In this document: positions 31 through 27,993 of the stretch, in pieces
Layout: each line of letters starts with the position of its first letter
Position numbering within the stretch: position 1 is the first letter of the stretch
NCBI GenBank assembly: GCA_000934665.2
Contig: KZ538873.1
Coordinates: 1 to 43,053 of the forward strand
Direction: 5' to 3'
From: Catajapyx aquilonaris
Taxonomy: Eukaryota
Length of the DNA stretch: 43,053 nucleotides
The notes under the pieces: generated by a model
The model's database searches: none
Seen by the model: the letters and a program-made list of their open reading frames with translations, nothing else
Told to the model about the DNA's origin: nothing
Translations under genes and position numbers: made by a program

Positions 31-2911
31 TTAGTTGTTATTAAAGGCAAGGTTATAATGAGCCCCATTTGCTTCACTGGTAATGTCAGTTAGAACAATG
101 TCACTAAATTCAACAGCTGCAGTGTCATGTGGAAATGCCGGATTTTCCTTTCTGTTTCGCCTCATCTGCATGATGATGCTGTACCCCTCCTGAATCAAGG
201 GCACCAAAATAATGAAACCGGTGGCCAAATAGGCCCATCCTCGAGTAATAGTAGTCCAGATCAGGAATCCATACTGAGTCAGGATATCCACACCCAGAAG
301 CATGGCCAGTGGCCACACCAGAAGAAGCATCAGCACCAGGGACACAGCGGTGATCAGAGCTGTCAGCCATGCTGGACGGAACTTCTTGACCACCACGTCC
401 AAAGCAGGCCTATCATGGATGACCTTACGAGAACCCTTTAAGTTCAGCTCCTTTTCGTACCCTTCGAACCACGGACGAAGAGGGTTGTCGATATTTCGTG
501 TCTTCTCCCACTCTGCAGCCTTCTCTGCGTCTGTCCAGTGGGGCTTGGATATGATGGACACCACCACGGTAATAATCCCACCGCCCAAAATGGCCACGAC
601 GTTGCCCACCAGCATGGATCGTTCCTGAACATGAATATTTTTAGTAAATGTCCAACAACAGTGGGTTCAACTTACATTTCCTGTGTTCTCCAAGAAGTTG
701 GACAACCCTCCTGGTAGTGTTGATGCGTATGCAAGCCAGCTGATTAGAGCCAGGATCAATCCAGAGAGGCTTCCAGTCACAACGCCTTTAACACAGAAAT
801 GTATTTAAAGTTGATGATAACTAATTTAAGTTTTGACATACCCGAAGCTGTAGCTCTTGTCCACATGATTGAAAACGCGATGGGAAAAACAGCGCTGGAG
901 ATAAGGACTCCTATTAGGAGGTACAGCCAGTTCAGATCTAATGTGGCATATGTGGCTAGAAGACTCAGGATGACGGATAATATAGTGGCGTTGACTATCC
1001 ACCAGTTCTTGTAGTACAACAGCTTATCCATGTACTCTCGGTACTCTTTATGGACTGAGCATGTGAAGTGAGGTTTCACCAAACCTCTGACTGTTGCACG
1101 GGCTGCATTGTCATTCTGCAGTGAAATTTAATTTCAATATGTACCGCATATACCACTGTATACAGTACCTTGCAATCCTGGCAACCTGACATGCTGTGAC
1201 AATTGCACACCATTTCATCTGGTACGTTGCGGTGACCTGGATGTTGGCGGGTCAGACGTGAGCACAATGTGCACTGGTCGTCAGTCAGATCAGTTTTGAA
1301 AGGCTTCAGGTATATCTACGGAACAGACCCATTTAGCATTGACAACATGTAGAAGGTGGGGTGTCGTACCTGGTATATGTCGTACACTACTATGGCAGCA
1401 ACGGCGATGACCTCGGATGACCCGGCAGCCATGACCACCAGGAGAAGTAGGGTCATCATGACAAACTCGCCATTTTTGCTGAGAATATGTTGGGCCACAA
1501 ACGGAGCCACAAGTCCTAAATAAGAGAGATTACTATTACCGCGATGTCGATATGTGTTAGTAGTACTAACTGACCACTCTCGACATCCTTGGAACTTAGA
1601 AGTTCTTCGCCATGAAAGGTGTTAAGGCCAATGTAGGCCAGGCCCATGGTTGTGGCCAAAGCAAATGGTACAGCGAACCATGTTAGCGCGCCCAGTACGA
1701 AGCCCCAAACGCCCTGCAAATTCATGTCATAAGATCACGAAGAGAACAACGACATTTTTGTAACGAGAGAATGATGTAACAATGAACCAACAGTGAATGC
1801 ATGTCTAAAAAAGAGCATTGTTCGCTACACGTGTCTGGCATTATTCGGGAGTAAAGTACTGTGTTGTATAGACAAGTACAGGTTAATGATCGGTTCTCCT
1901 GCTTTGTTTTCCATTCAATAAACCGGTATTCACTGACGTTATATAGTATTACAATTGTGCCATTTAACGCTATTATATTAATATGTGAATGACATTGCTT
2001 AGTTTTATTCATAGTTGCTGTCATGTGAATCAAGTTATCATTCCTCTACTAAAAGACAAACTGTTTCTCACAATAGCATCGTGGATATGCATGTATTTGC
2101 TGAATACAATTGAATTATTCATGCCTACACTGTTGGGCACCAATAATAATTAGCAACATATTTTTGTAACCAGGATTTTCCTCACATAGGTGTTTACCAG
2201 CAGTTTCTGAGAATTAGTGTACTCACATGTAGTGGCTTGGCGGCAATAGATTTCTGCCAGTAAGCTTGATCGCAAAATACTGCACCAAAATTACCAATAA
2301 TGTTTACTACACCAAACACGGCTCCACCTGAAATTAAAATATTCAAATGAACATACTAAAGTGTAAACATCATTCATAATGATTACCTGGCGAGTAAAAT
2401 GTGAAATAGCTTTGTTGATAGTTGTTTTCAGGTCCTTCCCAGCATGAGACTAGATTGTACAACGCATTACTGCTTCCAAATGGGTTCTTTGGATTTTGGG
2501 ATGGATTGTAAAAAACCTACCAAAAGTGATAGTGGTGTAAATATTTTGAAGAAAAATTAATATTAATTCTGCTTACCTCAATAACTAACCAACAGAGTAG
2601 TGAGTATATCATGGCTGTGTTGAAGTACGAAACATAGAACGTGGCTCCAAGACCTCCAATCAAAGTGTATGTGCCAATAATTAAACCCAGAAGAAGAGCC
2701 GCCAAATCGCTTGTTAATCCATCCACCAAACTGCAATAAAGTGTCATTTAAAAACAGCCTCTCATTATTCTAAAAAAAAAAAAATCATACCCAACAATAA
2801 CCGCAATTCCAGACACCATAAGTGCGACTTGAATTATTAAGTTGGTGAGAAGAGCAAAGAAACAAAACACTATATGTGCAGTTTTTCCAAATCGAGCGTA
2901 AATAACCTGCA

Positions 2912-2989
<78 letters not shown>

Positions 2990-3920
2990 TTAATACCTGC
3001 AGGAAAGTCTTGGCTCCAGGTGCTTTTGTTTTAAGTTGAATAGACAATATGGCAAAAAGGATAATTTGTATTGTTGCTCCAGCAGCGTACCAATAAGGAC
3101 CACTCAAGCCGTACTTGAAAGAAAAATTGGTTTAGTAACAAGCTGCCTTTGGAACCGTAATTAATTTACCTTCGCTGCTACTGTGCAACTCTGTAAGAGT
3201 GTTGCTCCCCATGTCCAATGTGACACAATAGTACTGGCAGTCAAGCTAATGGACACTGTCCCACCTGCGTCGAAGGCAGTGTCCAGGTTTTTGGCATCAT
3301 GAAAGACATTCTTACGGATCTGCATTAGAAAACATATGCAAAAACTCATGGTTTGTCAGTATACTTATATTACTCACAGAATAAAATGAAGTGGCAATTA
3401 AGGCGGACAGGACACCAATGGCCAATATGACAAGAACTGCGTATCCTAATGGAATCCCTTTCACAAGTCCTAGCTTATGGCCATATGATGAATTTTTCTT
3501 AGTACAGTGGACATCCGGTGAAACTGTCCAAACCGGAGTTGCTTGAGGTGTACTTGATGTTGCAACAGTTGCCTGTGGACTAGTAGTTTCCGAAATAGTT
3601 ATTGGAGCACTACTAGTAACTGTTGTTGTTGCTTCTGAGCTTGGTTCAGCAGGTGCTTGTGAACTAGCACTTGTGGAAACAGTTTCTTGTGGATTAGTAG
3701 TTGCTTGTGAACTACTAATTGTTGTTGATTCTTGGATCGACGGAGCAGAAGGACTCGTGTCAACAGTAGGTTGCTGACTTGTAATTGAAGCTGTTGTTTC
3801 TGGGTTTGCGCTCGATGCAACAGTTGTGGCAACATCAGGCAATGTTGGTGACGTTGAAGGTTCAAGACCAGTGCAAAAGTGCGGTACAACCAGTGCCCAC
3901 ACCAAGAAGTGCAAAATCAT
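31..3920 (-). CDS. DUR3: DUR3-like urea active transporter (sodium:solute symporter family), paralogue A, 13 coding exons, ~906 aa, with signal peptide and Ser/Thr/Pro-rich ectodomain
   Basis: Exons (minus): 3920-3378, 3319-3170, 3113-2997, 2906-2791, 2730-2577, 2516-2387, 2327-2227, 1713-1575, 1515-1370, 1315-1169, 1115-842, 785-676, 624-31. All introns are GT-AG, phases are consistent and the total is 2721 nt. DUR3-type motifs: [100 protein letters not shown]. Confidence 0.9.
2914..2988. repeat. (TAA)25 microsatellite filling most of the 90-nt intron 2907-2996
   Basis: Perfect trinucleotide run read directly. It produces the spurious poly-Tyr tail of ORF 2913..3107. Confidence 0.97.
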
Positions 3921-5024: not shown

Positions 5025-6512
5025 TTAGGAGTTATTGATCCAGAAGTACATATCATACGGCTGAAGCTGGATGGACAATTCACGGACATTGTCCTGTGTA
5101 AGAATCAGCTGACTACTCTCCAAGTGAACCATTTCCAAATACTCTCCACATGAATGCAAAATGATTGGAATCACTTCTCTGTTCATGCTGTTGTCATCCA
5201 CCTTGAGAGTACGCAACTCCTTCAGGTTGGAATCACAGAGGAGTTCGTAAACACAGGATTGGAAATATCTGTTATGCACTTTAAGATTCTTCAATTTGCT
5301 GCAGAAGGGTATGAGATATCTCACTTGCTGTTCTGGCACATTTGTCATTTCCAAATGTTCTAATGCTTCAGATCCAGCAAGTGTCATTTTATATGGAAGA
5401 GAAAGTGACATGTATTCGCCATCCAACAGCTTAAGAGACTTTAGATTAGGAAAAATCTCCCTGATCCCTGCCACATTAATAATCCTGCACTCAGTTAGGG
5501 TCAGAGACTTGAGATTTGGGTATGACACATTCATGTTTTGCCTAAAGAGAGAATCAAGGCCAGTAACATTATCCAAATGTAATTCATGGAGACCAAACAT
5601 GCACTTGTCCATCAGGAAAAGGAGGTTTGATGATTCCCCGTTATACGATATTGTCAAGCTCTTTAGGTTGGATAATTCACTAATCATATTTACCTCTGCA
5701 TTGACAAACATTTTCAGACTCAGCTGCTCAAGGTGTGGAAAATTGGTTACAACCTTTTGCACAGAATCAGCTTCATGCACTTTCAGCCGAATTACAAAGT
5801 CCTTCAACTGATAAGCATGTTTGCACAGTGGAAGAACTTTCAGTATACATTTACTATTCATCTGCAATACTTCCAGATTTGGAAGATGGTCAAGGAGGTG
5901 TATAGCTACCTTAGGAGTCATGGAATCAACACATATTCTCTTCAGATGCTTGCAGTTTGAAAGAAGCAGTAATGTGGATTCCATTACACCACAAAGTGAG
6001 CTTCCATCTAGCTTAATACTCTCCAACTGGGGACAGTTTTCAATAACTTTGGCCAAGAGATGTGGCTCTGAATTGAACATAAGATTAATTGATCGCAGGT
6101 TGGCCATTTCTGGGAATGGAATAATATCTGGGCATTCAGCTTGACTGAACTCCCAATTGGGGTCCAGTAAAGCCATTGCAGGTTCAATATTGATCAGATC
6201 ACTCATGATATGAAGACCCCCTAATATATGGTCAGACGAATTGAAATATTTCCCTACGCCATCTTTGCTAATCTGTGTGCACTTGGGATGAAAAGCACTA
6301 GTAATATCAAAGTGGTTTCCCCTACTTGCACACAACCTAAGGACCTCATTGACATATTCGTTTGCAAAAATAATTGGGATGTCCTGCACGTAGAGTCGAA
6401 TCACTTCTTCCTGTTTTCCATCACTCTTTTTGCATGAATTGACTGTTAACTCGGCCAAAACACGCAAACATGAGGACCGGAGACTTGGAGGCTGCTTTCT
6501 CCTTGGCATCAT
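5025..6512 (-). CDS. Leucine-rich-repeat (RNI/AMN1-like) protein with N-terminal BC-box-like motif, 495 aa, single coding exon
   Basis: Long ORF with repeated LxxLxL units (NLRSINL, CPQLESIKL, CKHLKRICV, LPNLEVLQM, FPHLEQLSL, YPNLKSLTL, FPNLKSLKL). N-terminal PPSLRSSCLRVL. The ATG immediately follows an acceptor (CTTACAG|ATG), implying an upstream UTR exon. Confidence 0.85.
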   Translation of the reverse strand: MMPRRKQPPSLRSSCLRVLAELTVNSCKKSDGKQEEVIRLYVQDIPIIFANEYVNEVLRLCASRGNHFDITSAFHPKCTQISKDGVGKYFNSSDHILGGLHIMSDLINIEPAMALLDPNWEFSQAECPDIIPFPEMANLRSINLMFNSEPHLLAKVIENCPQLESIKLDGSSLCGVMESTLLLLSNCKHLKRICVDSMTPKVAIHLLDHLPNLEVLQMNSKCILKVLPLCKHAYQLKDFVIRLKVHEADSVQKVVTNFPHLEQLSLKMFVNAEVNMISELSNLKSLTISYNGESSNLLFLMDKCMFGLHELHLDNVTGLDSLFRQNMNVSYPNLKSLTLTECRIINVAGIREIFPNLKSLKLLDGEYMSLSLPYKMTLAGSEALEHLEMTNVPEQQVRYLIPFCSKLKNLKVHNRYFQSCVYELLCDSNLKELRTLKVDDNSMNREVIPIILHSCGEYLEMVHLESSQLILTQDNVRELSIQLQPYDMYFWINNS

Positions 6513-8400: not shown

Positions 8401-9240
8401 ATGGCGATCTATGCACAACTCTTGATTCTTGCGAGTCTGGCCATTGCTTTGGTACAGTCTAAATGCAGCGACCCAACAGCACTCGAATCGGTCAACATTT
8501 CCAAGGTAAGCATACAATATTTTCCAGTGATGAACGGTAAATGCGAATTTAATCTAAATTATATACAGTTAGTAATTTTTATTCGTTAATCCATAGGAAT
8601 TCGTTTAAAAGTAATTGATGCTATGATATTCTCTTGATGTTTTTCTAGATCGTCGGTGAGTGGAACATTGTTAATATATCCGAGGTGGAACCAAGGACCG
8701 TTTGCGGGGTCATGAGGCACTACATTGATGACCCAACTGGTGTCCTCAAAATGCAGGCTCGATATTGTGACTCTGGGGTGAAGAGACATGAAGGGAATAC
8801 CGCAACTCTGATTCTGGCACATGCCAGGTTCCAATCCGAGTGCAACGACAGCACCAGGTTCACCGCCAGAGTCTCTCTGGACCAACGAGCTTCCGTGCCA
8901 TACGATGAGACATACTACCAGAAGGTCATTCTGAGTGACAATTTCGATAGATATGTCGTGTGGTACACCTGCATACCGAAGAGCTATGTTGACCCAGGTA
9001 TAGTGCTTTACCAACAGTTTTTGATCAGCATTTATTATTTAATTTTAATATCTACTAAATTGGCAAAAATTGACTAAATCATTGCTTTCAGAACCTACTG
9101 ATATGATAATGATATTCTGGAACAGCACAGTCCCGGAAGATCAGAAGACGATTAAACAAGTGATCGCCGACGCGAAGAAGAAGGTTCCCGATGCATACAA
9201 ATTTCATCCCACTAACAACGACGAGTGCTGCCAAAAGTGA
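8401..9240 (+). CDS. Secreted lipocalin (ApoD/calycin-like), 3 coding exons, ~200 aa
   Basis: Exons 8401-8505, 8649-8997, 9092-9240 (603 nt, GT-AG, phases 0 and 1). Signal peptide MAIYAQLLILASLAIALVQS. Lipocalin motif 1 NISKIVGEWNIV (GxW), motif 2-like VILSDNFDRYVVWYTC, and C-terminal NNDECC. AATAAA at ~9328. Confidence 0.8.
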
Positions 9241-9626
9241 TATTTAATATTTGGCTGAGCTCAATATTACAATTTTCTTCACATTTCGAATTATGTTACA
9301 GTAATACCGCATATTAGTATATGCCTGTAATAAAAATGATGGGATAAAATAATTTGGAGTTTACTTATGGTGACAATAACTATACAATCCTAACAAGCTA
9401 CGTGCAAACAAAATTTTTGAGCTCGCTGAAAATTATTTGGGAATAATTAACTTGTTTTGGTAATTAGCTGGAATGGGCTCTGGCGGCATTTGCCTGATGC
9501 AATCTGTTGATCGCCCTTTGATGTATACGCTATGAACGCTATTGGAAACCGGAGGATACTGCGTAGTTGCGGTGCTGTTTGTAAATAATTGCATATTATA
9601 ACTGCATTCGGAGTGGCCAAGTCATA

Positions 9627-9654
9627 CAGTACTTGGGCCACGTCAGTGCTTGGG
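9627..9654 (+). repeat. Left copy of 28-bp inverted repeat flanking the IR gene
   Basis: CAGTACTTGGGCCACGTCAGTGCTTGGG, preceded by TA. It matches the reverse complement of 12530-12557 at 27/28 positions. Confidence 0.9.
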
Positions 9655-9660
9655 TGAATC

Positions 9661-11769
9661 ATGTCCGGGTTGCAAGTGCTGGTCGTGTTCTCTGTGGCCA
9701 CGGCCATGTTTGGTGGCCATATCTCATCAGCATTATCGGGTGTCGGGAAGAACGTGTCTCTTCTGATGGAAGAGGAGAAGAGGAAGGGTGGGGAGGAAGG
9801 AGAGTGGTGGGCAGTGTCCAGAGTGGTGAGGGGCGTCCTGGACACGAGGGAGGACATGCGGGGATGCGGCCTGGTCATGTCCACTGACCTCGTCGGGTCA
9901 TCGGGCGTCTGGAAGGGATTGTGGAGGCCTCTTCTCAAAGGTCACTCGGACAAGTACCTCCCGTTCTTCACCCTCTTGACGACCTCCTTCCCCCACTCCT
10001 TCACAGACTACCCCTGGCTCAAGGGTCAAGCTGACCTCTTGGACTTCACCACCGTCCCTCCTGACCTCCTCGCGACCTCAGGGTGGTCATCCTCTCCCTG
10101 CACCCTCCACTTCCTCCTCCCCTCCTCCCCGTCCTCCCTCCCACAACTGGTCATGTCCACCGCCTTCAAGGTCAAGGTCAGTCCATTCGACGACCATTTC
10201 CTCATCCACTTCCCTCAGAGGTCAACATCACTCTATCCAGAGGAGGGAGAGGTCCATCGAGTGCTGACCTCTCCCTCTGCCAGTGCCCTCAGGTTTAAGG
10301 TGTCCACCAGGATGGTTGAAGATGGTGTCATGAAGATGGAGACTATCTGCTTCTTCTGCGGGGAAGGGGGTCAACCGATGGTCATCGAGCTGAGTCGCGT
10401 TAGCCGTGCAGAGCATCCGAGACTTGGCACCTTCTTCAAAAACTACGACAAAAACAGGATGAACAACAAACCATTTGTGCCTGGAATATACTTTCTTCCG
10501 GCAGACATGGAGGACGTCCGAAGGAGAAGGAAAGAAATGGGTGAGATTTACCTGAAGTATTACGAACGGTGTTACATCTTATTCGAGGAAGGGATGAATT
10601 ATTTCATTTCGGAGATGTACCTGAAGGAGCCGACCAGTGCCGAATTTGACCACATATTGGACAATGGCACTTGGGCGGGACTGATGGCGGATCTGATGAT
10701 AGGAAGAGTGGATGCCATAAGTGTCACAGGTTACACGGAGGACACCTATCGACACAGCCTCACCACGCATCCCTTCATTTATGGACACGGGACATTCATG
10801 ACCAGACCACCCGGAGGAGTGATCACCTGGAGGGTCATCTACAGGCCTTACGTCCTCCCCTTCTGGATATCCTTGGGGGTCACCCTCGCCCTTCTTCCGA
10901 TTGCGATGAGCATACTCTCCCGTTGCGACCCTTCTCGAGGGAGGTCAGAGGTCGAAGGGCAGCGACTGACCCTGCTGGGATCTCTCCACGTCCTAGCCAC
11001 ACACCTGATAGAACAGCCCGTTCCCTTCCCCACATCCCGCCGCTTTCTCTTCCTGGCCTTCTCCTACCTCTTCTTCTCCACCGTGGTCATCACTGGGTAC
11101 AAAGCCAAGATGGTCTCCTTCCTGACCTTTCCCCCGAGGGAGTTTGTCCCGAGAAACTATCTTGAACTGGCGGAATCCGGTTGGAGATTAGAAGCTGACA
11201 TGATCAACTTTCTGCTATGGAAGAAATTTGTCTCCTTATCCAATGATCCTCGACACCACACAATAGATGCGAGGACATCCATGGGTGAGAGTGTCCAGAG
11301 TTGTATGGAGAAGATGCAAAGTGAGAAACTCGTCTGCGGAGGTCTCGATTTAATCATAGGACAGGAGACTTACCTTTTTCGCGACACATCCGGGCAGCTA
11401 ACATTTCGTTTCTCTGAGGACAAAAATCTTGCCACTTTCATTGGCCCCGCTGATCCCCATGGAAAAACCATGCAACATTACTACGCAAACGAAGTCGCCA
11501 GATTTGTATATGAAAATGACATGATGGAAGTGATATTGAATGACTACAAGTACTTGATGTTTCTCCGTTCCTTGGATAGAATCCGGGCAAGGGAGAGGGA
11601 CAACCCCCAAAAGGCAGAGGAAGTGTTGACCAGGACAAAACTCTCTGCCATCTTCAACATGTGGTTGGGGGGACTGGGTGTTGCATTGTGTGCATTTGCA
11701 GTAGAAATCATAAGCCGCAAGTGTGGGGCTGTTGGGAGAAAGCAAAACACTGACAATATTGAGGGATAA
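9661..11769 (+). CDS. Divergent ionotropic receptor (IR, variant iGluR chemoreceptor), intronless, 702 aa
   Basis: Signal peptide-like N-terminus. S1 motif NGTWAGLMADLMIGRVD, M1 YRPYVLPFWISLGVT, pore-region LIEQP, M2 FSTVVITGYKAKMVSFLTFP followed by PRNYLEL, and final TM LSAIFNMWLGGLGVALCAFAVEI. Confidence 0.9.
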   Translation: MSGLQVLVVFSVATAMFGGHISSALSGVGKNVSLLMEEEKRKGGEEGEWWAVSRVVRGVLDTREDMRGCGLVMSTDLVGSSGVWKGLWRPLLKGHSDKYLPFFTLLTTSFPHSFTDYPWLKGQADLLDFTTVPPDLLATSGWSSSPCTLHFLLPSSPSSLPQLVMSTAFKVKVSPFDDHFLIHFPQRSTSLYPEEGEVHRVLTSPSASALRFKVSTRMVEDGVMKMETICFFCGEGGQPMVIELSRVSRAEHPRLGTFFKNYDKNRMNNKPFVPGIYFLPADMEDVRRRRKEMGEIYLKYYERCYILFEEGMNYFISEMYLKEPTSAEFDHILDNGTWAGLMADLMIGRVDAISVTGYTEDTYRHSLTTHPFIYGHGTFMTRPPGGVITWRVIYRPYVLPFWISLGVTLALLPIAMSILSRCDPSRGRSEVEGQRLTLLGSLHVLATHLIEQPVPFPTSRRFLFLAFSYLFFSTVVITGYKAKMVSFLTFPPREFVPRNYLELAESGWRLEADMINFLLWKKFVSLSNDPRHHTIDARTSMGESVQSCMEKMQSEKLVCGGLDLIIGQETYLFRDTSGQLTFRFSEDKNLATFIGPADPHGKTMQHYYANEVARFVYENDMMEVILNDYKYLMFLRSLDRIRARERDNPQKAEEVLTRTKLSAIFNMWLGGLGVALCAFAVEIISRKCGAVGRKQNTDNIEG

Positions 11770-12529
11770 TACTTGAATTAATTTCTGCCCTTCATTTTCT
11801 CATTAAGCAAAAAAGTTGAAATGGAAAATGTTTTTCTTTATTCTGATTACTCATAATAATTAATTTAATTTATTTTGTTTTTATCTCCTGTCATAACTAC
11901 TGCTACTGGTGAATGTATAGGGTGACCTTGATGTGTATTAGTCGTGTAAGATCACTAATTGCATAATTATGTAATGATCATGCATATAGAATGTCAAGAC
12001 ACCAAGAATCGTATCACAGCATGATTGCTTTCCTGATCAGTGTGAACAACCAGGAATTATTGTCACTGCTGCACCTGGCTGCACCCACAAACCACAACAA
12101 TGTCTACTGCATTATTTTTCAATTTGTTGTGCATACCGTATACTGTAGTTACCACCCCCAACAATCGCTCATTTATCAATGTTGTCAATCCACGGATCAT
12201 TCCTCTGCATTCGCAATCACAGTGTTTCATGTCTAATGTCTGTACCGTAATCACTGCTAATAAATAGTATTTAAATCTATTTATTATGGCTCCAACAGCG
12301 ATCTCCATTTTATACTCCTCGGGTGACATTTTGTAACATTTGTGCTTGATATTAAAATACCGGTAGGACCTTTTATACCGTGAGGACGACGCTGTTCACA
12401 GGCCTGCTGACGACCTGAGGTCGCGCAAAGGCTGTACCGTCCACTTTGGGAACCACTGAGAAGCATTTCCGGGCACATGCGTAGTACAATCATTTTCAGT
12501 GCATGTGTCCCCGGAAGTGCCTGCTGACC

Positions 12530-12557
12530 CCCAAGCACTGACGTGGCCCTAGTACTG
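12530..12557 (-). repeat. Right copy of 28-bp inverted repeat flanking the IR gene
   Basis: The plus strand reads CCCAAGCACTGACGTGGCCCTAGTACTG. Its reverse complement differs from 9627-9654 at one base. Confidence 0.9.
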
Positions 12558-12637
12558 ACCCAGTGTCTCACCTCTTCGAGTCCGTCAATATTCAATTATT
12601 GACAAACAAGCCTCTATTACGCATTACCCCCCCCCCC

Positions 12638-12655
12638 NNNNNNNNNNNNNNNNNN
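12638..12655. other. Assembly gap (18 N) inside a poly-C tract
   Basis: N run flanked by C homopolymers. A single N also occurs at 40840 in a poly-G tract. Confidence 0.99.
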
Positions 12656-12829
12656 CCCCCCCCCCCCCCCCGCTTTCCAAGCCATATAGCAGTGGTAGAA
12701 TAATTATACACATCAAAGCGCAGAAAACAGATTGTATCAGTCAAATGAGGCCGCCGCACATTTCCAGCAGTTGACCAATACATGTCAGAAATTTACATTT
12801 ATTTAGCATTATGCCATTTTGTCGAATAT

Positions 12830-13230
12830 CTTACGTCAAGACGAAATCTTGCCTTCAATTTGCGTTACCAGGTTCAGGTGTACTACCATAGACTTGCATG
12901 GAAATATTTTCATCTAATGGATAATTATGTACACTGTTAGAATAAATAAGCATAGGTTTTTGATAGCATTATTTATATTTAAGGATGTATTATTGCGCTG
13001 AGGTCTAAAATCAGCTACAATTTATAAACTTCTAGAAAAGTTGCAATATTAAGAAAGATGTAGAATAATATTGAATTCGGCCTCAATTAGCATTATTGAC
13101 GACCGTGAAATTGACATGACGTACACGATGTCATACATCGTGTACGTCATGTCATTGCCATCATTATCAATAACGCCGAATCTGCTCTGGGTTGCATGTA
13201 CAAGAGATACAATAATATTCATCTCAACGA
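12830..13230. repeat. Diverged copy of the AT-rich repeat also found in the EcKL intergenic spacers
   Basis: CGAAATCTTG..CAATTTG.G.TAC.AGGTTCAGGTG.ACTA (~12843) matches ~31327. TTGCATGGAAATATTTTCATC (~12894) matches ~27415. TCAGCTACA..AAACTT.TAG (~13011) matches ~27688. CGCCGAATCTGCT (~13174) matches ~19084. Confidence 0.65.
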
Positions 13231-13406
13231 TATATTGCAACAATGGCCTGAAAATGATGCAGGAGCAAAAAAAAACTATATGTCACATGTGTGCAGTGAA
13301 GGTTGGTTGATACGAGTATTCTAAGCGATGAATAGAATAATTATGTTAATAGAAGATTTCTGCAAAAGTATGCTGGAAATATTCTGTACTGCACTCAAAC
13401 TGTTAT

Positions 13407-16400
13407 TCATCCTCGCTTCATTCCCATCAGAGTTTGATTTGATGGGTCACGGTGGTCTTCTCGTCTGTTGCGTTTGAGTTGGGCCAAGATGGACACGACC
13501 TCCTGGGCCACAGGGACGACCACGATGAATCCAGTGGCGATGTAAGCCCATCCTCTGGACAAGATAGTCCAAATGGAGAATCCATTGGAGTCCAGAATGG
13601 TGGTACCAAGGAGCATGCCTGCAGGCCAGAGAATGATGAAGAACACAGTCAGGATTCCTGCCGACACGTACGCCGTCAGTTTGGCCGGACGGAACTTTCG
13701 AACCACCAGTTCTAATGGGGGACGGCCATGGACTTTTACGGAGAAACCCCCTTTCAAATCATCCTGAAAGCAGGTTACAGTTAAACGCAAAAGTTCTTCC
13801 AAGCACTGTCTATCTTGATGCATAATAAACAGAGAAAAACTGTGCAAACCTGATAAGCCTGAACCCATGGTGACAGTGGGTTGTCTATGTTGCGAGTCTT
13901 CTCCCATTCGGCTTCCAATTCCTCAGGTGTCCACTTGGGTTTGTTTACAATGGACACCAGTACACATATTATTCCTCCTGCTCCCATTGACATCACGTTA
14001 CCAATGAACATCGAGTATATCTTCAGTCATAAAGCGCTTAATATTAGATTATTAGTTCTTCCCGTAATTTCCCTTATAAGACCTACATTTCCAGTGTTGT
14101 TGATGAAGTCCCCCAACCCCCCTGGCAGAGTGGATGAGTAAGAGAGCCAAGAAACGATGGCGCAGAGGACTCCTCCGAGGCTTCCAGCGATCATCCCAGA
14201 GGAGGTGGCCCTTGTCCAGGTGATGGAGAAGGCGATGGGGATGACCGCTGCCGAGATGAGGACCCCGATGAAGTAGTAGATCCAGGAGAGGTTGAGCTTG
14301 GCGTACCAGGCCAGAAGGGTCAGGACCACGGACAGGACTGTTGCGTTCACTATCCACCAGTTTTTGTAGGTCAGGAGGTCCTCCAGGTACTCCCTGTACT
14401 CCTTGTGCACTGGACACTGGTGGCGGAACTTGCCTTTGGCAGGGGAATGAACTTGGCGGTATGAGCGGTCCTCCTATTTGTAATATCAAAGTCATTATAA
14501 GAGAAGACATAATTAAAGCACATAAAGGATATATGGTCTGCTCCGTGAAACTTGCCCACATGTCACTACGACTACGTATACACTACGTATACAATATGCC
14601 AAATTCTATATCCACTGCTAAAAGCAATTATTTCCTTGGTAGTGACTGTGGTGTTAAATCCAATACGGTACTAATAATGTAAAATATTTCGGAATCTACT
14701 TAATGTATAGTCCCTTACTTTGCAACTTTCACATTGCGTTGCTGAAGGGCATTGGCACAGGGACCCCTTCGTATTTTTCATATCAGTCAGTGGATGGATG
14801 TACTTCGAGCACAGGATGCACTTACCTTCCTCCAAGGCCTCTCGGAAAGGCTTCAGGTGTACCTGATCGCAAAGCAAATATTGTTATTTCACCTCTTGGA
14901 AAGCTGTCAATATCAACCCGTAATTACTCTTCACCTGGTATATGTCGTAGACCACAATGGAAGCCACTGCCACAACCTCGGAGGCTCCTGTAGACATGAC
15001 TGCCATCAGTATGAGGACGAGCATGATCAGTTCGCCGACTTTGCCCAATAGTTTATGGCATACAAATGCAGCAACCAATCCTAGGAATTTCTATCACTGG
15101 TAATAATCGGACGATAATTATATTCTGTTAACTGACCGCTGTCCACTTGGTTGTCTGTGAGCAGCTGTTGTCCGTGGGCCGAGTTGAGTCCCAGGTAGGC
15201 CAGACCCATTGTTGTGGCCAGTCCAAACGGAACAGCAAACCAAGTCACTGCTCCCAGAACAAAGCCCCACACACCCTGTTCAAGAAATGCAGTGTAATAA
15301 AGGAGCCCCGTTTATTATTGTGGAGAGCGGTGTAATTTCCGCCAGGGGATAGTAAGTTAATCAGGTGATCCCATGGTCCAAATTACACTGACATTCCCTA
15401 AATATTTTTACAATTTCCCACTGGGTGCTCTCCCATATTTGCAATTACTTACCTGCAAAGGTTTTGACGCAACTGATTTTTGCCATAGTGCCTGATCACA
15501 AAATGAAGCTGAAAATCCGGTTACGATATTCACAACGCCAAACAGAATTCCCTCGGAGGAGTAGTAGAAGGTGAGGTAGCTCTTGTCCCTGTTTCCTTCT
15601 GGCCCTTCCCAACACTCGAGGAAGCCAAACATGGCCTGGCTGCTCCCAAAAGGATTCTTCGGGTTGTCGCTCGGGTTGTGGTAAACCTCGATGATCAGCC
15701 AGCATATCAGGATGTAAATGAGGGCCGTGTTGAAATAAGAGACGTAGAATGTGGCACCCAGACCACCGATCACAGTGTAGATGGCCACTATTCCGGCCAG
15801 CATGAAGGTGGCCAAATCAGGGGACAAACCACTCACCAAACTGTATTGAAATCAACGACAGTATTTGTTATGAAAATGAACCAGAGAGTGTACTTGCCTG
15901 TTAATTACAGCAACACCTGCCACCATAAGAGCAACAACAATAATTGCATTGGTCAGCAAGGCAAAACCGCAGAATACCAGATGGGCTGTTTTTCCAAATC
16001 TTGCGCGGATGACCTGGATGAAATGAGGTGGATACGTGATTGATCGGCGCAAAGTCCAAAATATGAGTGTCCTTATAATACTGTACGAGAGTACGACGTT
16101 CTAATAATTTACTCTCTAAAAAAAATAGAGTTAAAAAAACTCAAGTTGGGTTCTTTTTAACTCTTTTAACCTTGAAAGTGGTCATTACCAAAAATGAGTT
16201 ATAATAACTCTTTTGCTGGAGTTAAAACAACTCTTTCAGTTCATTTCATCCTCCGAAAGAGTTATTCATTAACTCTTTCGGAGTTAGAAATGAACTAAAA
16301 GAGTTGTTTGAACTCCAGCAAAGAGTTATTATAACTCATTTTTGGTAATGACCACTTTCAAGGTTTAAAAGAGTTAATTTAACTCTTATTTTTTTAGAGA

Positions 16401-19271: not shown

Positions 19272-21270
19272 TTACATACTACTGAAAATATCTCTAGCCC
19301 TGGCCTCGTTGAGTAGAGGCAGAAGCCGACCCATGAATCTCGGACTGGAAAAGAACTTCTGGAACTGCTCATTCTCTTTAAAATTTTCAAGCTCTTCGAC
19401 AGTTAGCTTTTCCAGGTCCGGTATATTTTCAGCGTCCTGCGTGATCATGGGCAATATCAGACATCCGAATATGAACCCTAAAAGAAAATGATCGTTATAC
19501 TCCTTCTTCAGCCCTTCGAGGCTGAACTTGGACGAGTCCACTCCGACTTCATTCAGGTAACCCACAAACGTATCGTGATAAACCTGAAACAGCTGATCCT
19601 GGTGACTCTTCCTGGTGGCTTCGGTGGTGCTGGTACAGAAGAAGTACGCAAGGTCCAATCCCCTAGATCCAGCTCTCGCTATCTGGAAGTCAACCAGCTT
19701 GGTCTCCTGAACCGTCCCGTCTGAACCATACTTGAACATCATGTTGTTAACCCAGCAGTCTCCGTGACATATGACAGCGTATCCGTCGTCAATCTTTTCA
19801 TTCTGTCGACGGCAGGCTTCCAACACACCGTTGGACAAGTCCAGTACCTTCTGCATGCCGTCAGCGACGTCGCCGTATTTCTTCATGGCCCTCACCTTCT
19901 CCACGGTCGAGGAGAAGTTTGAGTCCATCAACTTGGCAGTGTCCTTGTTGGCAGGGTCTGTGAACATATCCTTCAGGAGAGGGAACTTTTGGAGCAGAAG
20001 GTCCATGCTTCCATTGGCAAACGCGTACGATTGGGCGTGAAGTAAGGCCAACTGCTGCAGGACTAGTTTGCTATGGGGGTAGTCCAGACCTTCTATTCGG
20101 TCTGCCATCTTGAACCCGTCTTTCTTCAGGTTGTGCATCAGCATGTAGTCGGTTTTACCATCGCAATGGCCGTAGTAGACTCGGGGATATGCGGTGAAGC
20201 CTTTAGTTTTGAAGCCCCTTGATTTCTCAAAGTCGGCCAATCCTGGGAAGACGTCTTGGTAGACGCTGATCTCCTTCTTGAAGGCGCCCAGGTCAGCCAG
20301 CATTTCTTGTCGGAAGGGGTTGTTCGGGATGACCTTTGCCATGATGGAGTAGTTTGTGGGAACACCTGATTTCCGGGCTTCGATCTCGACGGCGTACATT
20401 ATGGCCAGGTAGTTGTCGCCGACGTTGGAACCAGGGGTCACGTCCACAGTTATTACCTGGAAAAGTACATTTTTGTATATTATTCAAAATAGGAACCAAT
20501 AAGATACCAGTGGACATTTCCTCATTATTTCCGTAAGAATATGATTTTTTGTCACACATTAACGCCTGCACTACTAATTGCCGAGATACAGTATACCGTA
20601 TGTTTCAAGGTACGTTTACGTCACACGCTTCAAGCGCATATGAGCAACAAGGACACGGTATACAGTTAAAAAAATTACAAACGTATAGAACAGGCCCTTC
20701 CCTTGTTTTATTAGGCCCGACCTTGACCTCAGTGGCTCTGGTGAATATTTCCTCGTGTAGAAAATATTCCGTAACATGTGCAAGGCTGCTCGTAAATAGG
20801 CCTTTCCACTCTCGATGGAGCATGGCAATACGCCAGATACCTACGCTACATGAAACAGTAAACATCCAAGTTACGTGCATTACCCCGCAAAAACTCTTGT
20901 TGTTCACATACGTCTAACCAGTCCGAATAATACTCATGTAGGCCTACGCAACGACTTGCTACGTTATGCAACAGTTTGTACGTCCTTGAGTAAGAGAAAA
21001 AAAAATGCTGTGTAATACAAGTTACACGATTGGAAATTATTGCGGACCTGAGGCGCAGTAACTTTTAAAATTTAAGCTTAATTCAAAAGCCTAGTTCCAG
21101 AACCGGTTCTTGCTCAGTATTTTCACGCATAGGAGACTATATTATTTTGAAATGCTTACCTCCAAATCGTTGCATTTTTCTGACTCTCTCAGCACCTTTT
21201 GCAGCGAATCTTTCTCCAAACAGGCAGGAATAGCCACTTCTTCTGCTCCGTTTTGCTGCGGTTCTGCCAT
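19272..21270 (-). CDS. Ecdysteroid kinase-like (EcKL/EcKinase, CHK-like) copy 1, 2 exons, 431 aa
   Basis: Exons 21270-21160 (MAEPQQNGAEEVAIPACLEKDSLQKVLRESEKCNDLE) and 20456-19272. Motifs GDNY, FKKEISVY, LALLHAQS, CHGDCWVNNMMF, LVDFQ, DLAYFF. Confidence 0.93.
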
Positions 21271-22062
21271 GGTTGACCTACCCACTGTGTGAAAAGGACC
21301 TTCCTAAGTCGTGTGTTCAGCTAGAATGAGATGGCATGGGACTGAGCCCTTCAGAAAGGATTATCTGCTAGTTTCCTCTTATATATTAGAAAGGGCCCAA
21401 GTGAAGTAACACGTAGTCAATTTTTCATTACACTTATCCTGTGTGTCCATAGTTTATGAAATAAGAACTATCAGGGTCATACGTGACTGATTGTGAGATA
21501 CGAGAGTTTGAAACGTGCGATTTCATTAATTATTTATTTTTTGTAAATAATTGTATGGGTGCTGTGTGTGCCAGTGTGCTATACCGGTATGTCATTGGTG
21601 GAAGAATAATATTTAGACTATTTAGTGTCAATACTGGCAATGAAGGAACTTACATCAACTGAGGCACAGTACGTCATCTGATAGTGTTTTGTTGCGATTT
21701 AATTCCAGCATCAACATGCTTTAATTCAAGCTTTAGTTATTGCCCTTGAACATAAAGAATTTGAGGGGCTCAGATCAAAAACAGCCAAGTCCACTTTTGG
21801 GTGGGTGTAACGCAAATTCGTGTTGGAATAATGTATTTTAATGCCACTTGGTATTCATTCCACATTTACGTATACTGTACGTATAATAATGTAGCTGCAC
21901 TGCGGCAACATGTGGATGCAAAAAGATTCAAGATTGTTCTGTACACCAGTGAAAGTTACGTAATCTTAATTTTTTTCTCATTTTACGACCTGTTTTTGTT
22001 GTTATCAGAGCCCTCAATTATGAATGGCCCCATATATGGTATATGAACGTTACGTACACTTT

Positions 22063-24201
22063 CTACTGAAACCGACTGAAACTATCTCTAGCCCTGGCCT
22101 CTTCAAGTAGCGGCAGAAGCCGATCCATGAATCTCGGATTGCAAAAGAATTTCTGGAACTCATGCTTGTCTCTAAAACTCTCCATGCCTTCTTCAGTTAA
22201 TGTTTCCATGTCTGGTATATTTTCAGTGTCCTGCGTGATCATGGGCAGGTCCAGACATCCGGATATGAAACCGAAGAGAAAGTGATCGTTGTACTCCTTC
22301 TTCAGCCCATCGAGGGTGAACTTGGAGGAGTCCACTCCAGCGTCGTTCAGGTATCCCACAAACGTGTCGTGATAATCCTGAAACATCTGATCCTGGTGAC
22401 TCTTCCTGGTGGCTTCGGTGGTGCTGGTACAGAAGAAGTACGCAAGGTCCAGTGCTTTTGATCCAACTCTCGCTAACTGGAAGTCAACCAGCTTGGTCTC
22501 CTGAACCGTCCCGTCCGGACCATACTTGAACAGCATGTTATTCACCCAGCAGTCTCCGTGACATATGACAGCGTATCCGTCGTCAACCTTTTCGATCTGT
22601 TGATGGCATGCTTCCAACACACCGTAGGACAAGTCCAGTATCTTCTGCATGCTGTTAGCAATGTCGTCGTATTTCTTCGTGGCCCTCACCTTTTCGATGG
22701 TCGAGGCGAAGTTTGGGTCCATGAACTTGGCAGCGTCTTCGTTGGCAGGGTCTGTGTACATTTCCTTCAGGAGAGGAAACTTTTGGAGCAGAAGGTCCTT
22801 GCTTCCTTTGGCAAGCGCGTGCGACTGGGCGTGAAGTAAGGCCAACTGTTGTAAGGCAAGTTTGCAATGCGGGTAGCCCAGACCTTCAATTCGGTCTGCC
22901 ATCTTGAACCCATCTTGCTTCAGGTTGTGCATCAAAATGTAGTCTGTTTTACCATCGCAATGGCCGTAGTAGACTCGGGGATATGCGGCGAATCCTTTGC
23001 ATTTGAAGCTTCTTGATTTCTCAAAGTCAGCCAATGCTGGGAAGACGTCTTGGTAGACGCTGATCTCCTTCTTGAAGGCGGCCACGTTGGCTAACATTTC
23101 TTGGCGAAATGGGTTGTTCGGGAGGACCTTTGCCATGATGGAGTAGGATGTGGGGACACCTGATTTCCGGGCTTCGATCTCGACGGCGTACATTATGGCC
23201 AGGTAGTTGTCGCCGATGTTGCAGCCAGGGGTCACGTCCACAGTTATTATCTGGAAAAGTACATTTTTGTATATTCAAACTAGGCACCAATATGATGCCA
23301 TATGACATTTCCTCATTATTTCCGCAATAACATGATTATTTGTCACACATTGACGCCTGCACTAGTCTTTACTTTTATTCACACAATCTTTAGCGGAAAT
23401 TCGTCACCAGGTTGTGGTATGTGTAGGCCATGGGGGTGTAAAGCTGTCGTCTTACTGCTGCTGTGCGAATAAAAGCCGGAGGATACAGTGTATGCTCAGA
23501 CGGATGTGGGAACAGGTAAATAAACAATTTAGGTTACATTACGATGGCATTATCAGCCACATCTGCGATAAAGGCAATCATTATAAAATTATATTCTTTG
23601 ATTGTGACATACATTCTGCAATATTACAACCAGTTTAATTTATGAATAAATTGGTGTTTATGATATAGAGTACGTGTTCGCTATTCACTTTAAATTCTTC
23701 TGATTGCATTGTATGCCTTGCTACAGTATATTGTACTGTACATTTCAAGGTATGTTTAGGTCACAGGTTTCAAGCGCACATTAGCAACATGCGTGCGGTA
23801 TAATAGTGGTAAACAACACAGTTACGCGCGTTACCCCCGCCAAAACTCTTGTTGTTTACGTACGTCTGACAGCCCGAATGACTCATGTAGGCATACGTAA
23901 CGACACTACGTTTCACAACATTTTGTACGTCCTTGAGTAAGAGAGAAAAAATTCTGTAATACAAGCTACACGATGGGAAATTATTGCGGAACTGAGGCTC
24001 AGTAACTTTTCTCATTTAAGCTTAATTCAAAAGCCTAGTTCCATAACCTGTTCTTGCTCAGTATTTTCACAGCAACCACAAATTCTTACCTCCAAATCGT
24101 TGCATTTTTCTAACTCTCTCAGCACATTTTGCAGCGACTTCTTTCTCTAAACAGGCAGGAATGGCCACTTCCTCTGCCACGTTTTTCTGCGGTTCTGCCA
24201 T
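22063..24201 (-). pseudogene. EcKL copy 2 with a +1 frameshift in exon 1 (possible young pseudogene or base-call error)
   Basis: Exon 1 (24201-24090) is 112 nt versus 111 nt in the four sister copies, with an extra T at ~24139-24140 (GCGACTTCTTT versus GCGACTCTTT). Exon 2 (23250-22063) is fully open with catalytic motifs intact. Confidence 0.65.
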
Positions 24202-25180
24202 GGTTGACTTACCAACTCTGCCAAAAGGGCCTTCCTAAGTCATGTGTTCCTCTTGAATGATATCACCTGGGACAGAGCCCTTCAGCAAGGATTATCTACT
24301 GTTCTACCAGTATTGTATCCTCTTCATATACTGTGCTAGAAAGGACCCCAATGCAGTAACACGTAGTCAATTTTTCATCACTCTCATCCTGTGCCTCCAT
24401 ATTATTTTAAAATTATTTTTTTTTTGTAAATAATTGTATCATTCAATCTCCAACCAATGAAATACGGTATCAATTTCTAGAAAAAATATGATTGATCCTT
24501 CTGAAAATATTTTTCTTCTAAGTGTGCGATTACTCTATATTAAAACGAAGCCTTAAAAATAGGTGTCCATAGTTGCAGCTACAGTGAAAAACATGCAGAA
24601 CAGTACTATTATTTGTAGCCTTAGAATTCAAATATATGTGTAGGCCTAAATATTCGTGCTCATGAATATTATTTAATTAAAACAGCGAAATCTGCATATA
24701 CTTTGTCTTTGGTGGAAGAATAATATTTATTTAGTGTCAATACTGGCAATGAAGGAACTGAGGTCAACATACTGAGGTGTGTAATCTGATAGTGTTTGTT
24801 GCGATTTAATTCCCCCATCAATCTGCTTTAATTATTGCCCTTGAGCATATTTGAGGGGTCTGAGTTCTGAGATCAAAAACAGTCAAGTCCACTTTTGGGG
24901 GGTGTAACGCAAATTTGTGTTGGAATTACGTATTTTAATGCCAATGGATATTAATGGCACATTTGCGTACATGTAGCCTAGCTGAACTTCGGAAACATAT
25001 GGAAGCAAAACGTTTCAAGATTGTACGGTACACCAGTGAAATTTAAGTAATCTTCAGTTTTTGCTCATTTAACGACCTGTTTTTCCTTGTGCACTTAGTA
25101 GTTTTTGATATCAGACTCATCATTTATGAATGTGGCCCCATCTATGGTATTTGAACGTTACATAATATTATACAATATTA

Positions 25181-27059
25181 CTACCGATGAAACCGACTGA
25201 AACTATCTCTAGCCCTGGCCTCTTCAAGTAGCGGCAGAAGCCGACCCACGAATCTCGGATTGCCAAAGAACTTCTCGAACTCATCCTTGTCTCTAAAACT
25301 CTCCATGTCTTCTTCAGTTAACGTTTCCATGTCCTGTATATTTTCAGCGTCCTGCGTGATCAAGGGCAGGATCATACATGCGGATATGAATCCGAAGAGA
25401 AAGTGATCGTCATACTCCTTCTTCAGCCCTTCGAGGGTGAACTTGGAGGCGTCCACTCCGGCGTCGTTCAGGTAACCCACAAACGTGTCGTGATAAACCT
25501 GAAACAGCTGATCCTGGTGACTCTTCCTGATGGCTCCGGTGGTGCTGGTGCAGAAGAAGTACGCAAGGTCCAGTGCTCTTGATGCAGCTCGCATTAACTG
25601 GAAGTCAACCAGCTTGGTCTCCTGAACCGTCCCGTCCGGACCATACCTGAACAGCATGTTGTTAACCCAGCAGTCTCCGTGACATATGACAGCGTATCCG
25701 TCGTCAACCTTTTCAATATGTCGATTGCAGGCTTCCAACACACCATAGGACAAATCTAGTACCTTCTGCATGCCGTCAGCGACGTCGTCGTATTTCTGCA
25801 TGGCCCTCACCTTTTCGATGGTCGCGGCGAAGCCTGGGTCCATGAACTTGGCCGAGTCTTTGTTGGCAGGGGCTGTGAACATTTCCTTCAGGAGAGGAAA
25901 CTTTTGAAGAATAAGGTCCTTGCTTCCTTTGGCAAACGCGTACGACTGGGCGTGAAGTAAGGCCAACTGTTCTAGGACCAGTTGGCAATGAGGGTAGTCC
26001 AGACCTTCAATTCGGTCTGCCATCTTGAACCCGTCTTTCTTCAGGTTGTGCATCAAAATGTAGTCGGTTTTACCATCGTAATGGGTGTAGTAGACTCGGG
26101 GATATGCGGTGAATCCTTTGCATTTGAAGCCTCTAGATTTTTCAAAGTCAGCTAATCTTGGGAAGACATCTTGGTAGGCGCTGATCTCCTTCTTGAAGGC
26201 GCCCAGGTCTGCCAGCATTTGTTGTCGGAAGGGGTTGTTCGGGATGACCTTTGCCATGATGGAGTAGGATGTGGGGACACCTGATTTCCGGGCTTCGATC
26301 TCGATGGCGTACATTATGGCCAGGTAGTTGTCGCCGATGTTGGAGCCAGGGGTCACGTCCACAGTTATTACCTGGAAAAGTACATTTTTGTAAATTCAGA
26401 ATCGGAGTATATTTTTTCTGTCACATATTCACGCTTACATTAGTCCATATGAGCGAAAATTTGTCATCAAGTTGTGGTATGTGAAGCCCGTGGGTGGGGG
26501 GTTAAAGGCTGTCCTATTATTTTCTGCACATGTAAAAAATTACGTAACATGTGCTCGTAAATAGGGCATTTCCACTCGTTGGAGCATGACAATACAACAA
26601 ATACCTACTGACCTACATCACTACATGAACAGTGTAAACATCCGAGTTACGTGCATTACCCCGCCAAAATCCTTATTGTTTACGTACTGTACGTAAAACC
26701 AGCTAGAATTAGGATTATCATGTACCGGTATAGGACAACGTAACGACGCTCGAAGCTACGTTACATTACGCTACATTTTGCCCGTCCTTGAGTAAGGATA
26801 AAATGCTGTAATTACGCTCTATGCGGTTCTATTTCCACGGAGAATTTTTTTCAGACCTCAGACTAATCAGTGACATAACATAAGCCAAGTTCCAGAACCG
26901 ATTCTTGCCCAGTTTTTTTTCCTAGCAAATCATTTTCGAAATACTTACCTCCAAATCGTTGCATTTTTCCGACTCTCTCAGCACCTTTTGCAGCGAATCT
27001 TTCTCCAAACATGCAGGAATGGCCCCTTCCTCTGCCTCGTTTTGCTGTGGTTCTGCCAT
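25181..27059 (-). CDS. EcKL copy 3, 2 exons, 433 aa
   Basis: Exons 27059-26949 and 26371-25181. CHGDCWVNNMLF and LVDFQ. Confidence 0.93.
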
Positions 27060-27993
27060 GGCTGACGTACCCACTGTGCCAAAATTACCTTCTAAGTCGT
27101 GTATTCAGCTTGAATGAGGTCATGCATGGGACGGAGCCCTTCAGCAAGAATTATCTGATAGTTTCCTCTTCGCACATAAAGGGCGTCAGTGCAGCAACAC
27201 GTTGTCACTTTTTCATCACTCTTATCCTGTGGCCTCCATAGTTTATGAGATAAGAATTATCAGGTCCCACACGTGACTGATTGTGAGACAAGAGCATTTG
27301 AAAAAGTGAGATTTCATACATTAATCTGATATTCTTTTAATGTTCATTATATTACTCTTATTTTACCTGCTGAAAACTTGTTTACAATTGAGGTTAAGGT
27401 GAACGTCTGAAAATTTGCATGGACATATTTTGATCAACAATATTGTAATGGCTATTTTCGTCTGTTAGAAAATAATAATAGACAAAATACGTTTAAGAAT
27501 CCCGCCACATACATAATAATTGATTTATGATGGATGTAATTATTGAAATATATTGTACAGACGTCTGTACTCCAATTTTTAAAGACAGACATGAGCCATG
27601 CATCATTATTGCCATAATAAACAAGTCACCAAAATAATAACAATTATGATGATATGGCAGCCCTGAAAAATTGGTGAGCGTATAGAGTCAGCTACAGTGA
27701 AAAACTTGTAGGACAGTGATATTATTTGTAATGCAAATAGTAGAGTAATAATTATTCGTGCTCCTGAATTTTATAAGTTATTAATACTGCCGGACCTACT
27801 TTGTCTTTGGTGGAAGAATAATATTAGTGCCAGTACTGGCAATGAAGAAACTGAGGTCAACCGAGGTACTGTACGTCATCTGATAGTGTTTTGTTCCGAT
27901 TTAATTCGCGTATCGTCCTTCTTTTATTTTTGACCTTAAACATATAGTTATTTATGAATGGACCCGTAGCTGAATAACTATGGCACATGAACA

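Follow-up and report, generated by a model that had tools for sequence, protein, structure and literature searches.

The window analyzed here, i.e., the whole stretch of 43,053 nt from Catajapyx aquilonaris (GenBank assembly GCA_000934665.2, contig KZ538873.1, forward strand), hosts an intronless gene for a divergent ionotropic receptor (IR), which is enclosed by an inverted pair of 28-nt sequences (28-mers). The pair is the best-kept core of a longer inverted duplication of the receptor's own 5' flank, the extent of which had been under-read in a first-pass annotation of this DNA. As the origin of this arrangement, we favor a partial duplication, in inverted orientation, of promoter and leader of the receptor and assign it a probability of about 0.5. 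By its features, the duplication resembles a copied promoter and leader more than the termini of a mobile element.

Extent and conservation of the inverted duplication

The left 28-mer and the reverse-complement copy on the right (Table 1) agree in 27 of 28 bases, with a T>A exchange at position 8. Within the window these two were the only matches at up to three mismatches, and none of 100 dinucleotide-preserving shuffles gave any pair. The near-perfect 28-bp inverted repeat described in the first-pass annotation is thereby confirmed as a real feature that is not due to chance. Its position held as well: the left copy ends 6 nt before the IR start codon (ATG at 9661), and reading of both flanks showed TA directly before the CAGT of the left copy and, as had been noted, AC in place of TA after the right one. 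Internally, the 28-mer is composed of the 11-mers CAGTACTTGGG and CAGTGCTTGGG, 17 nt apart and flanking CCACGT. It contains the site TGACGTGG, by its letters alone a candidate for binding of bZIP-type factors (similar to cyclic AMP response elements or unfolded protein response elements, CRE/UPRE). A degenerate version of the 28-mer gave no match in collections of metagenome, genome, and viral contigs, in which this organism is not expected and blanks are uninformative.

The similarity extends over two arms of ~224 nt (~9431-9654) and ~276 nt (~12530-12805), the pieces of which are colinear in an alignment with MAFFT. Outward of the 28-mers, 29-36 nt of unlike spacer are passed before similarity returns, and the inner edges mark a sharp stop. 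The earlier statement that similarity stops abruptly at both edges is therefore correct for the inner edges and incorrect for the outer ones. Several searches agree on the outer part. A repeat search found a second inverted pair just outside the 28-mers (9472-9527 with 12707-12762, 56 nt, 75%), and blastn of the region against the window aligned 9450-9527 with 12785-12707 (73% of 79 nt) as well as 9551-9654 with 12632-12530 (72% of 107 nt). Local alignment with the 28-mer left out (9300-9626 against the reverse complement of 12558-12900) still paired 9431-9527 with 12707-12805 at a score of 36. The corresponding controls reached 10.6 +/- 1.4 with a maximum of 18 in 1000 shuffles, none of which attained 36, and 11 in the same-strand comparison. 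A third copy of either the arm or the 28-mer was not found in the 43-kb window. The idea that each arm represents a complete small inverted-repeat element by itself was ruled out, as the 28-mer occurs without a third or fourth copy and has no complement at the arms' other ends.

Identity along the arms is uneven. Next to the 27 of 28 matches of the core, 126 of 196 outer aligned columns (64%) agree, and the columns 9591-9630 show 16 matches out of 40. When the match vector was permuted 100,000 times, a window with 27 of 28 matches appeared in 0.96% of the permutations. This pattern has to be weighed against a neutral relic, meaning an inverted segmental duplication that has decayed, with a functionless right copy and a 27/28 core owed to chance or to a short gene-conversion tract. 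A constraint signal of just p ~0.01 would suit such a relic, as would the lack of any open reading frame (ORF) with a Pfam match and of any known RNA after the right copy. A spacer near random (16/40) beside a near-perfect core is, however, hard to obtain from uniform decay, and a gene-conversion tract limited to 28 nt is not expected between arms that are 64-75% alike. Parts of the genome report on the dipluran Campodea augens describe fragment-rich, rearranged IR families (PMC6938034), among which a decayed duplication would be at home. Taken together, we consider the neutral relic rather unlikely.

Promoter-like anatomy of the two arms

The left arm occupies the place where a promoter of the receptor would be sought. 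Upstream, open frames on the + strand (8649-9240) end with a stop at 9240, followed by AATAAA at 9329, and probably constitute a gene. On the other side, an in-frame TGA at 9655-9657 separates the left 28-mer from the ATG, so that the receptor ORF cannot begin further upstream. Given these borders, the start site of the receptor transcript must fall in ~9350-9660, and the left arm fills most of the gap between the probable upstream gene and the receptor ATG.

Every sub-repeat in both 28-mer copies is headed by ACAGT or TCAGT, and the initiator consensus of arthropods is TCAGT. In the left copy, a TATA-like block is situated ~30 nt before (A/T)CAGT, a suitable distance in view of the ~25-31 nt expected between a TATA-like box and an initiator. 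The right copy preserves this spacing: the 28-mer is 28 nt away from the end of the AT-rich block (ATATT) in the left arm and 29 nt away in the right arm, with unlike spacer sequence between the copies. A spacing that is kept while the sequence is free is as expected of a TATA-to-initiator spacer. Furthermore, the break at the inner edge of the duplication coincides with the border between leader and ATG, which we count in favor of a promoter and leader.

Based on this anatomy, the left copy would serve the receptor as its functional proximal promoter and leader, consisting of a distal block, the AT-rich TATA-like block, and, ~30 nt further on, a CAGT initiator-like start. Next would come the 28-nt leader, in which an ACGT-core site is framed by two copies of (A/T)CAGTRCTTGGG, with the ATG 6 nt on. 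The 28-mer is probably a start-site or leader element and would be the most constrained part of the module. A conserved regulatory module had been among the alternatives of the first-pass annotation and came closest to the anatomy found here, with the correction that the unit is the whole upstream module of 225-275 nt and not the 28-mer alone.

The right copy would accordingly be read as a second module without a receptor ORF, placed between the convergent receptor and symporter genes and facing the receptor's 3' end. It may be the orphaned promoter of a tail-to-tail paralog that was lost or never completed. It may also be a still active promoter, giving rise to a short convergent transcript that would end near the minus-strand AATAAA at 12280-12285. 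Remnants of receptor-like coding sequence were not detected behind the right copy, where tblastn of the receptor protein gave no match in 11770-12529 at E up to 10, and the minus-strand ORFs located there (12284-12595 and 12063-12395) gave no Pfam match. A scan of 9000-13400 against Rfam returned two sub-threshold matches at chance level only, neither of them at the arms, and no tRNA was found in the window. In terms of RNA folding, the stretch 12440-12560, which includes a local hairpin just inside the right 28-mer, reached z = -3.2 on the + strand and -0.9 on the - strand; the leader region 9600-9700 folded no better than its shuffles (z = -0.53). A 3-nt deletion variant at 12521, near this hairpin, accounted for part of the depth in two of four sequencing runs.

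Several observations weigh against a copied promoter and leader. In the right copy, the TATA-like block has the degenerate form AATATTGA, and this copy is not followed by any ORF that matches a Pfam family. A transposon terminus, too, would present a sharp inner boundary, a CAGT start, and two 11-nt sub-repeats. Statistically, constraint on the 28-mer is moderately backed (p ~0.01), which is suggestive but not overwhelming, because the gap placement by MAFFT flatters identity.

The positions of the poly(A) signals bear on a further proposal of the first-pass annotation, pairing between the 5' and 3' parts of one RNA. Here, both 28-mers would be part of a single receptor transcript and form a 28-bp panhandle masking the start codon region. 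The copies are complementary on one strand by construction (27/28), and the left one adjoins the ATG. The two + strand signals, AATAAA at 12259 and ATTAAA at 12351, both lie ahead of the right copy at 12530, however, and a canonical 3' end of the receptor mRNA would leave this copy out; in addition, the longer and weaker outer similarity has no role in such a structure. We therefore regard RNA pairing as extremely unlikely.

Table 1. Features of the receptor locus and of the two arms of the inverted duplication (positions in the window)
Feature	Position	Strand	Description
Left arm	9431..9654	+	Proximal upstream region and putative leader of the receptor; better-kept islands at ~9468-9527, 9578-9598, and the 28-mer
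TATA-like TATTATAA	9594..9601	+	-34 to -27 from the A of CAGT at 9628; end of the conserved AT-rich block; putative promoter element
Left 28-mer	9627..9654	+	Two 11-nt direct sub-repeats, each headed by (A/T)CAGT, around CCACGT; 6 nt ahead of ATG
Receptor ORF	9661..11769	+	Intact and intronless, 702 aa, predicted divergent ionotropic receptor (iGluR superfamily); ligand-binding and channel core, N-terminal third family-specific
First AATAAA after the receptor ORF	12259..12264	+	Probable polyadenylation signal for the receptor mRNA; the right 28-mer follows after 266 nt
AATAAA	12280..12285	-	~245-275 nt downstream of the right 28-mer; opposes the + strand signal 15 nt off
Local hairpin	12466..12519		Just inside the right 28-mer; stem of ~16 bp
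Right arm	12530..12805	-	In the 3'-3' intergenic space, aimed at the receptor 3' end; no receptor-related ORF after it
Right 28-mer	12530..12557	-	27/28 identical to the left copy; T before both sub-repeats (TCAGT)
Poly-C tract with assembly gap	12626..12666		N at 12638-12655; interrupts the right arm

DNA contig depth and the question of mobility

Among five sequencing runs listed, the locus is present in four DNA runs of one sample, and no RNA run was listed as containing it. The repetitiveness of the locus was evaluated by contigs from these four runs; their sample is possibly the one behind the assembly, so that they provide no independent support. Summed contig depth does not equal copy number and is read here only as a sign of many stretches 90-99% alike in that DNA. 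As the contig words comprise 31 letters and are thus longer than the 28-mer, depth gives no copy number for the 28-mer itself. Contigs of single-copy depth (~20-35) cross each arm with 0-2 differences (8446-9802 on the left, 11648-12626 joined to 12666-13506 on the right). The junction from 12626 to 12666 shows that nothing else is hidden in the assembly gap of the right arm. The inner non-coding part (11770-12529, 760 nt) is also at single-copy depth at ≥90% likeness. Three bins of the receptor ORF (9736-10386, 10821-11254, and 11472-11688) reached summed depths of ~400-3200, exemplified by a contig of 199 nt with a depth of 1061 and 6 differences. At ≥90% likeness, the repeated entity is thus represented by portions of the receptor coding sequence and not by a unit bounded by the 28-mers.

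These data bear on the proposal of a mobile cassette, put forward in the first-pass annotation as a pack-type element bounded by terminal inverted repeats (TIRs) that moves IR genes. In its explicit form, the 28-mers would be the TIRs of a pack element 2,931 bp in length, Tc1/mariner-like and non-autonomous, which would carry the whole receptor gene and depend on a transposase encoded elsewhere. Tc1/mariner elements have inverted ends that bear CAGTC, CAGTT, or CAGTG next to TA duplications, according to parts of PMC7093834. Both 28-mer copies start with CAGT (CAGTAC), are 27/28 identical, and show TA before the left copy; their two 11-nt direct sub-repeats could be transposase-binding sites, and parts of the receptor ORF are highly repeated in the DNA contigs. 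Likewise, many intronless IRs of C. augens are described as singletons, and a very large genomic flux that relocates even individual genes is reported there with no mechanism given (PMC6938034).

Other properties of the locus speak against such a cassette. The check for a target-site duplication gave TA on the left and AC on the right, so that TA is not duplicated on both sides. Beyond the supposed termini, similarity resumes in a colinear way and at kept spacing, which is not expected of unrelated target DNA. The inner non-coding DNA (760 nt) and the two arms have a depth typical of single-copy DNA (~20-35), whereas ORF segments reach 1000-3000, so that the repetition at ≥90% likeness does not correspond to the cassette in its proposed limits. 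With no more than 34 nt from the terminus to the ATG, an element starting at 9627 would lack a promoter of its own. Neither a transposase nor a reverse transcriptase was found in the receptor ORF, in 33 further ORFs of at least 90 aa (out of 81 in the window), or in 14 neighbors, the unscanned ORFs overlapping named genes. With TA missing on one side, related flanks, no transposase in the scanned ORFs, and no own promoter, we did not file the locus as a Tc1/mariner or pack-type element. The proposal is not supported by these data, and we judge it decidedly unlikely.

A second explanation involving mobile DNA derives both arms from one dispersed repeat family, either a transposon end or a short non-autonomous element, of which old copies or their remnants would have been placed here independently and in opposite orientation. 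The conserved terminus of the family would be the 28-mer, and its proximity to the ATG a coincidence or the result of co-option. The inner boundary is sharp in both copies, and conservation peaks there and fades outward, as it does for elements with conserved termini; in addition, another short dispersed repeat is found just past the right arm (12842-12914). Yet the 43 kb hold no third copy of arm or 28-mer, and both arms are at single-copy depth at ≥90% likeness, a level at which old diverged copies would escape. Neither arm carries the complement of the 28-mer at its other end, and it would have to be by coincidence that the terminus stops exactly 6 nt short of the ATG and that a TATA-like block stands at a suitable distance. 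An origin from a dispersed repeat is unlikely in our view.

The preferred duplication of promoter and leader predicts the presence of the 28-mer at other members of the receptor family. One contig of single-copy depth, present in all four runs, repeats 9636-9670 (going back 35), a hint that the leader-ATG stretch exists in a variant form or at a second locus. A more far-reaching version, which we consider very unlikely, would make the 28-mer a family-wide signature with two roles, i.e., the start-site and leader element to which each dispersed copy owes its expression and at the same time a handle for the copying or flipping of single receptor genes. Such a handle could be the site of a transposase or recombinase, or provide microhomology for inverted template switching, and the right copy would then be the mark of either the other terminus of a mobile unit or an antisense promoter that takes part in the choice of receptor. 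If true, this would explain the spread of singleton receptors through such genomes.

The receptor gene

The first-pass annotation had called the gene an intronless IR, and this call was confirmed by one frame of 702 aa from ATG to stop and by a profile match to structures of GluD1. The profile, built from the ORF and 24 relatives, matches GluD1 chains (9jrg_A, E 4.2e-40) over profile positions 228-652, i.e., the ligand-binding and channel core, and 362 sequences of the Protein Data Bank (PDB) match it at E ≤0.001. By this profile match, the contiguous core of S1, channel, S2, and last membrane helix, homologous to solved ionotropic glutamate receptors (iGluRs), is present. In the ORF alone, Lig_chan (PF00060) was the sole Pfam family matched, with 24.9 bits and E 2e-05, which is under the curated cut-off of 30.8. 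Across the alignment of the ORF with 24 library relatives, Lig_chan was found at E ≤0.001 in 25 of 25 sequences and the glutamate-binding-site domain in 12 of 25. The first ~230 residues match the unnamed fragments P0007 and P0023 only, and an iGluR-type amino-terminal domain was not recognized in them. Judged from its sequence, the gene is an intact, intronless, divergent IR with a single coding exon and without the iGluR-type amino-terminal domain.

Searching 1.84 billion representative sequences by phmmer yielded 351 relatives of the receptor at E ≤0.001. Among those with a name, an ionotropic glutamate receptor C-terminal domain-containing protein from the springtail Orchesella dallaii ranked first (27% identity). 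A comparison with 8000 candidate homologous proteins gave none at E ≤0.001, and a search for related loci in metagenomes resulted in 108 pattern matches, none of which was confirmed.

The receptor ORF had also been described as visibly richer in GC than its flanks. The contrast itself is correct (GC 0.525, with 0.65 at third codon positions, GC3, versus 0.37-0.39 in the flanks), but it is not peculiar to the receptor, as an ecdysteroid-kinase-like ORF in the window has a GC of 0.498 and a GC3 of 0.654. Since another coding ORF of the window has a like GC3, the contrast marks coding sequence, and a foreign origin deduced from GC content was ruled out.

The depth within the receptor ORF (9736-11688) is a mosaic. 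It is high at ~aa 26-242 (N-terminal third), ~aa 388-531 (channel helices), and ~aa 605-676 (region of the last helix), and near single-copy in stretches aligning with the ligand-binding lobes (~aa 243-387 and 532-604). As a lead only, this would fit ligand-binding lobes that diversify, with the rest of the family kept or homogenized.

Neighboring genes

The receptor is a singleton between unrelated genes. Downstream, exons of a sodium:solute symporter occupy the - strand at 13407-16100; receptor and symporter are convergent, and the right arm lies in their 3'-3' space. For the upstream ORF, a look-alike search by a language model points to lipocalins (score 0.91, a lead only), and a search for homologous proteins gave no scoring match among 48 candidates. 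At the 3' end of this lipocalin-like gene, the segment 9085-9301 shows about twice the single-copy contig depth, a variant that skips 94 nt (9122 to 9217), and loose ends at 9078 and 9244, a pattern that resembles a small repeat or a polymorphism by insertion or deletion.

The 3' region of the symporter hosts a near-perfect palindrome (13090-13176) with arms of 42 nt and a loop of 3 nt, folding at -43.6 kcal/mol (z = -8.1 compared with shuffles). Its sole Rfam match is a microRNA far below threshold (23 bits, cut-off 110). The short dispersed repeat past the right arm pairs 12842-12886 with 31327-31371 (84%) and 12870-12914 with 27391-27435, each over 45 nt and at 76-84% overall. Its copies at 27391-27435 and 31327-31371 lie in two spacers of an array of kinase-like genes. 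This array (19272-38027, - strand) is composed of seven tandem intronless ORFs of 375-380 aa at ~3 kb spacing. All three ORFs that were scanned match the ecdysteroid kinase-like family (EcKL) at E 1e-69 to 1e-70, and the nearest named relatives of the first array ORF are insect proteins with just 27-31% identity. A further intronless ORF of 495 aa on the - strand (5025-6512) has weak matches to leucine-rich repeats, all under the curated cut-offs.

Comparison with known systems

Should the 28-mer and the upstream blocks recur before other family members, they would represent a compact cis-regulatory code for chemoreceptor genes in a non-model arthropod, and a marker to trace duplication, inversion, and dispersal of single receptor genes. 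If they are confined to this locus, the arrangement adds another scar of rearrangement to a gene family with fast turnover and is of little wider interest.

With Tc1/mariner and pack-type elements the locus shares a near-perfect short inverted repeat starting with CAGT, TA on one side, and internal direct sub-repeats (compare the ends described in parts of PMC7093834). In contrast to these elements, TA is missing on the other side, similarity continues past the ends, the scanned ORFs contain no transposase, and the inner DNA is single-copy. Pack-type elements carry gene fragments, whereas here a whole intact gene lies flush against one end.

Core promoters of arthropods with TATA box and initiator resemble the arms in the TATA-like block ~30 nt upstream of (A/T)CAGT and in a spacing that is kept independent of the spacer sequence. 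The difference lies in two initiator-like 11-mers in a 17-nt tandem around an ACGT-core site, with a putative start site; we know of no core-promoter layout of this kind. Convergent or natural antisense units are comparable in that a promoter-like copy is aimed at the receptor's 3' end and in that poly(A) signals of opposite strands lie 15 nt apart. They differ in that the present case is known from its sequence, with putative transcripts on either strand.

The closest relation is to the divergent IRs of arthropods, which have expanded by duplication, retroposition, and rearrangement. These are mostly single-exon genes, and their spread is attributed to retroposition and unequal recombination in parts of PMC2924276. 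For C. augens, 2,424 IRs, mostly intronless, are given, and its IR families are portrayed as large and intronless with many fragments and short-range inversions (parts of PMC6938034). The receptor analyzed here agrees with such genes in its single-exon ORF, in the iGluR-type ligand-binding and channel core without a conserved amino-terminal domain, in the indications of numerous near-identical relatives within its DNA sample, and in its position as a singleton between unrelated genes. Fragments and short-range inversions are likewise described for these families (parts of PMC6938034 and PMC2924276). What sets it apart is the inverted second copy of the putative promoter and leader without a coding part, of which we found no description. 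Our search of the literature for conserved leaders or inverted repeats around IR genes retrieved no report, supplements of the cited papers aside. By analogy, an orphan inverted promoter fragment would fit the picture of the C. augens IR families, and the case is that of a rearranged member of an expanded, intronless receptor family.

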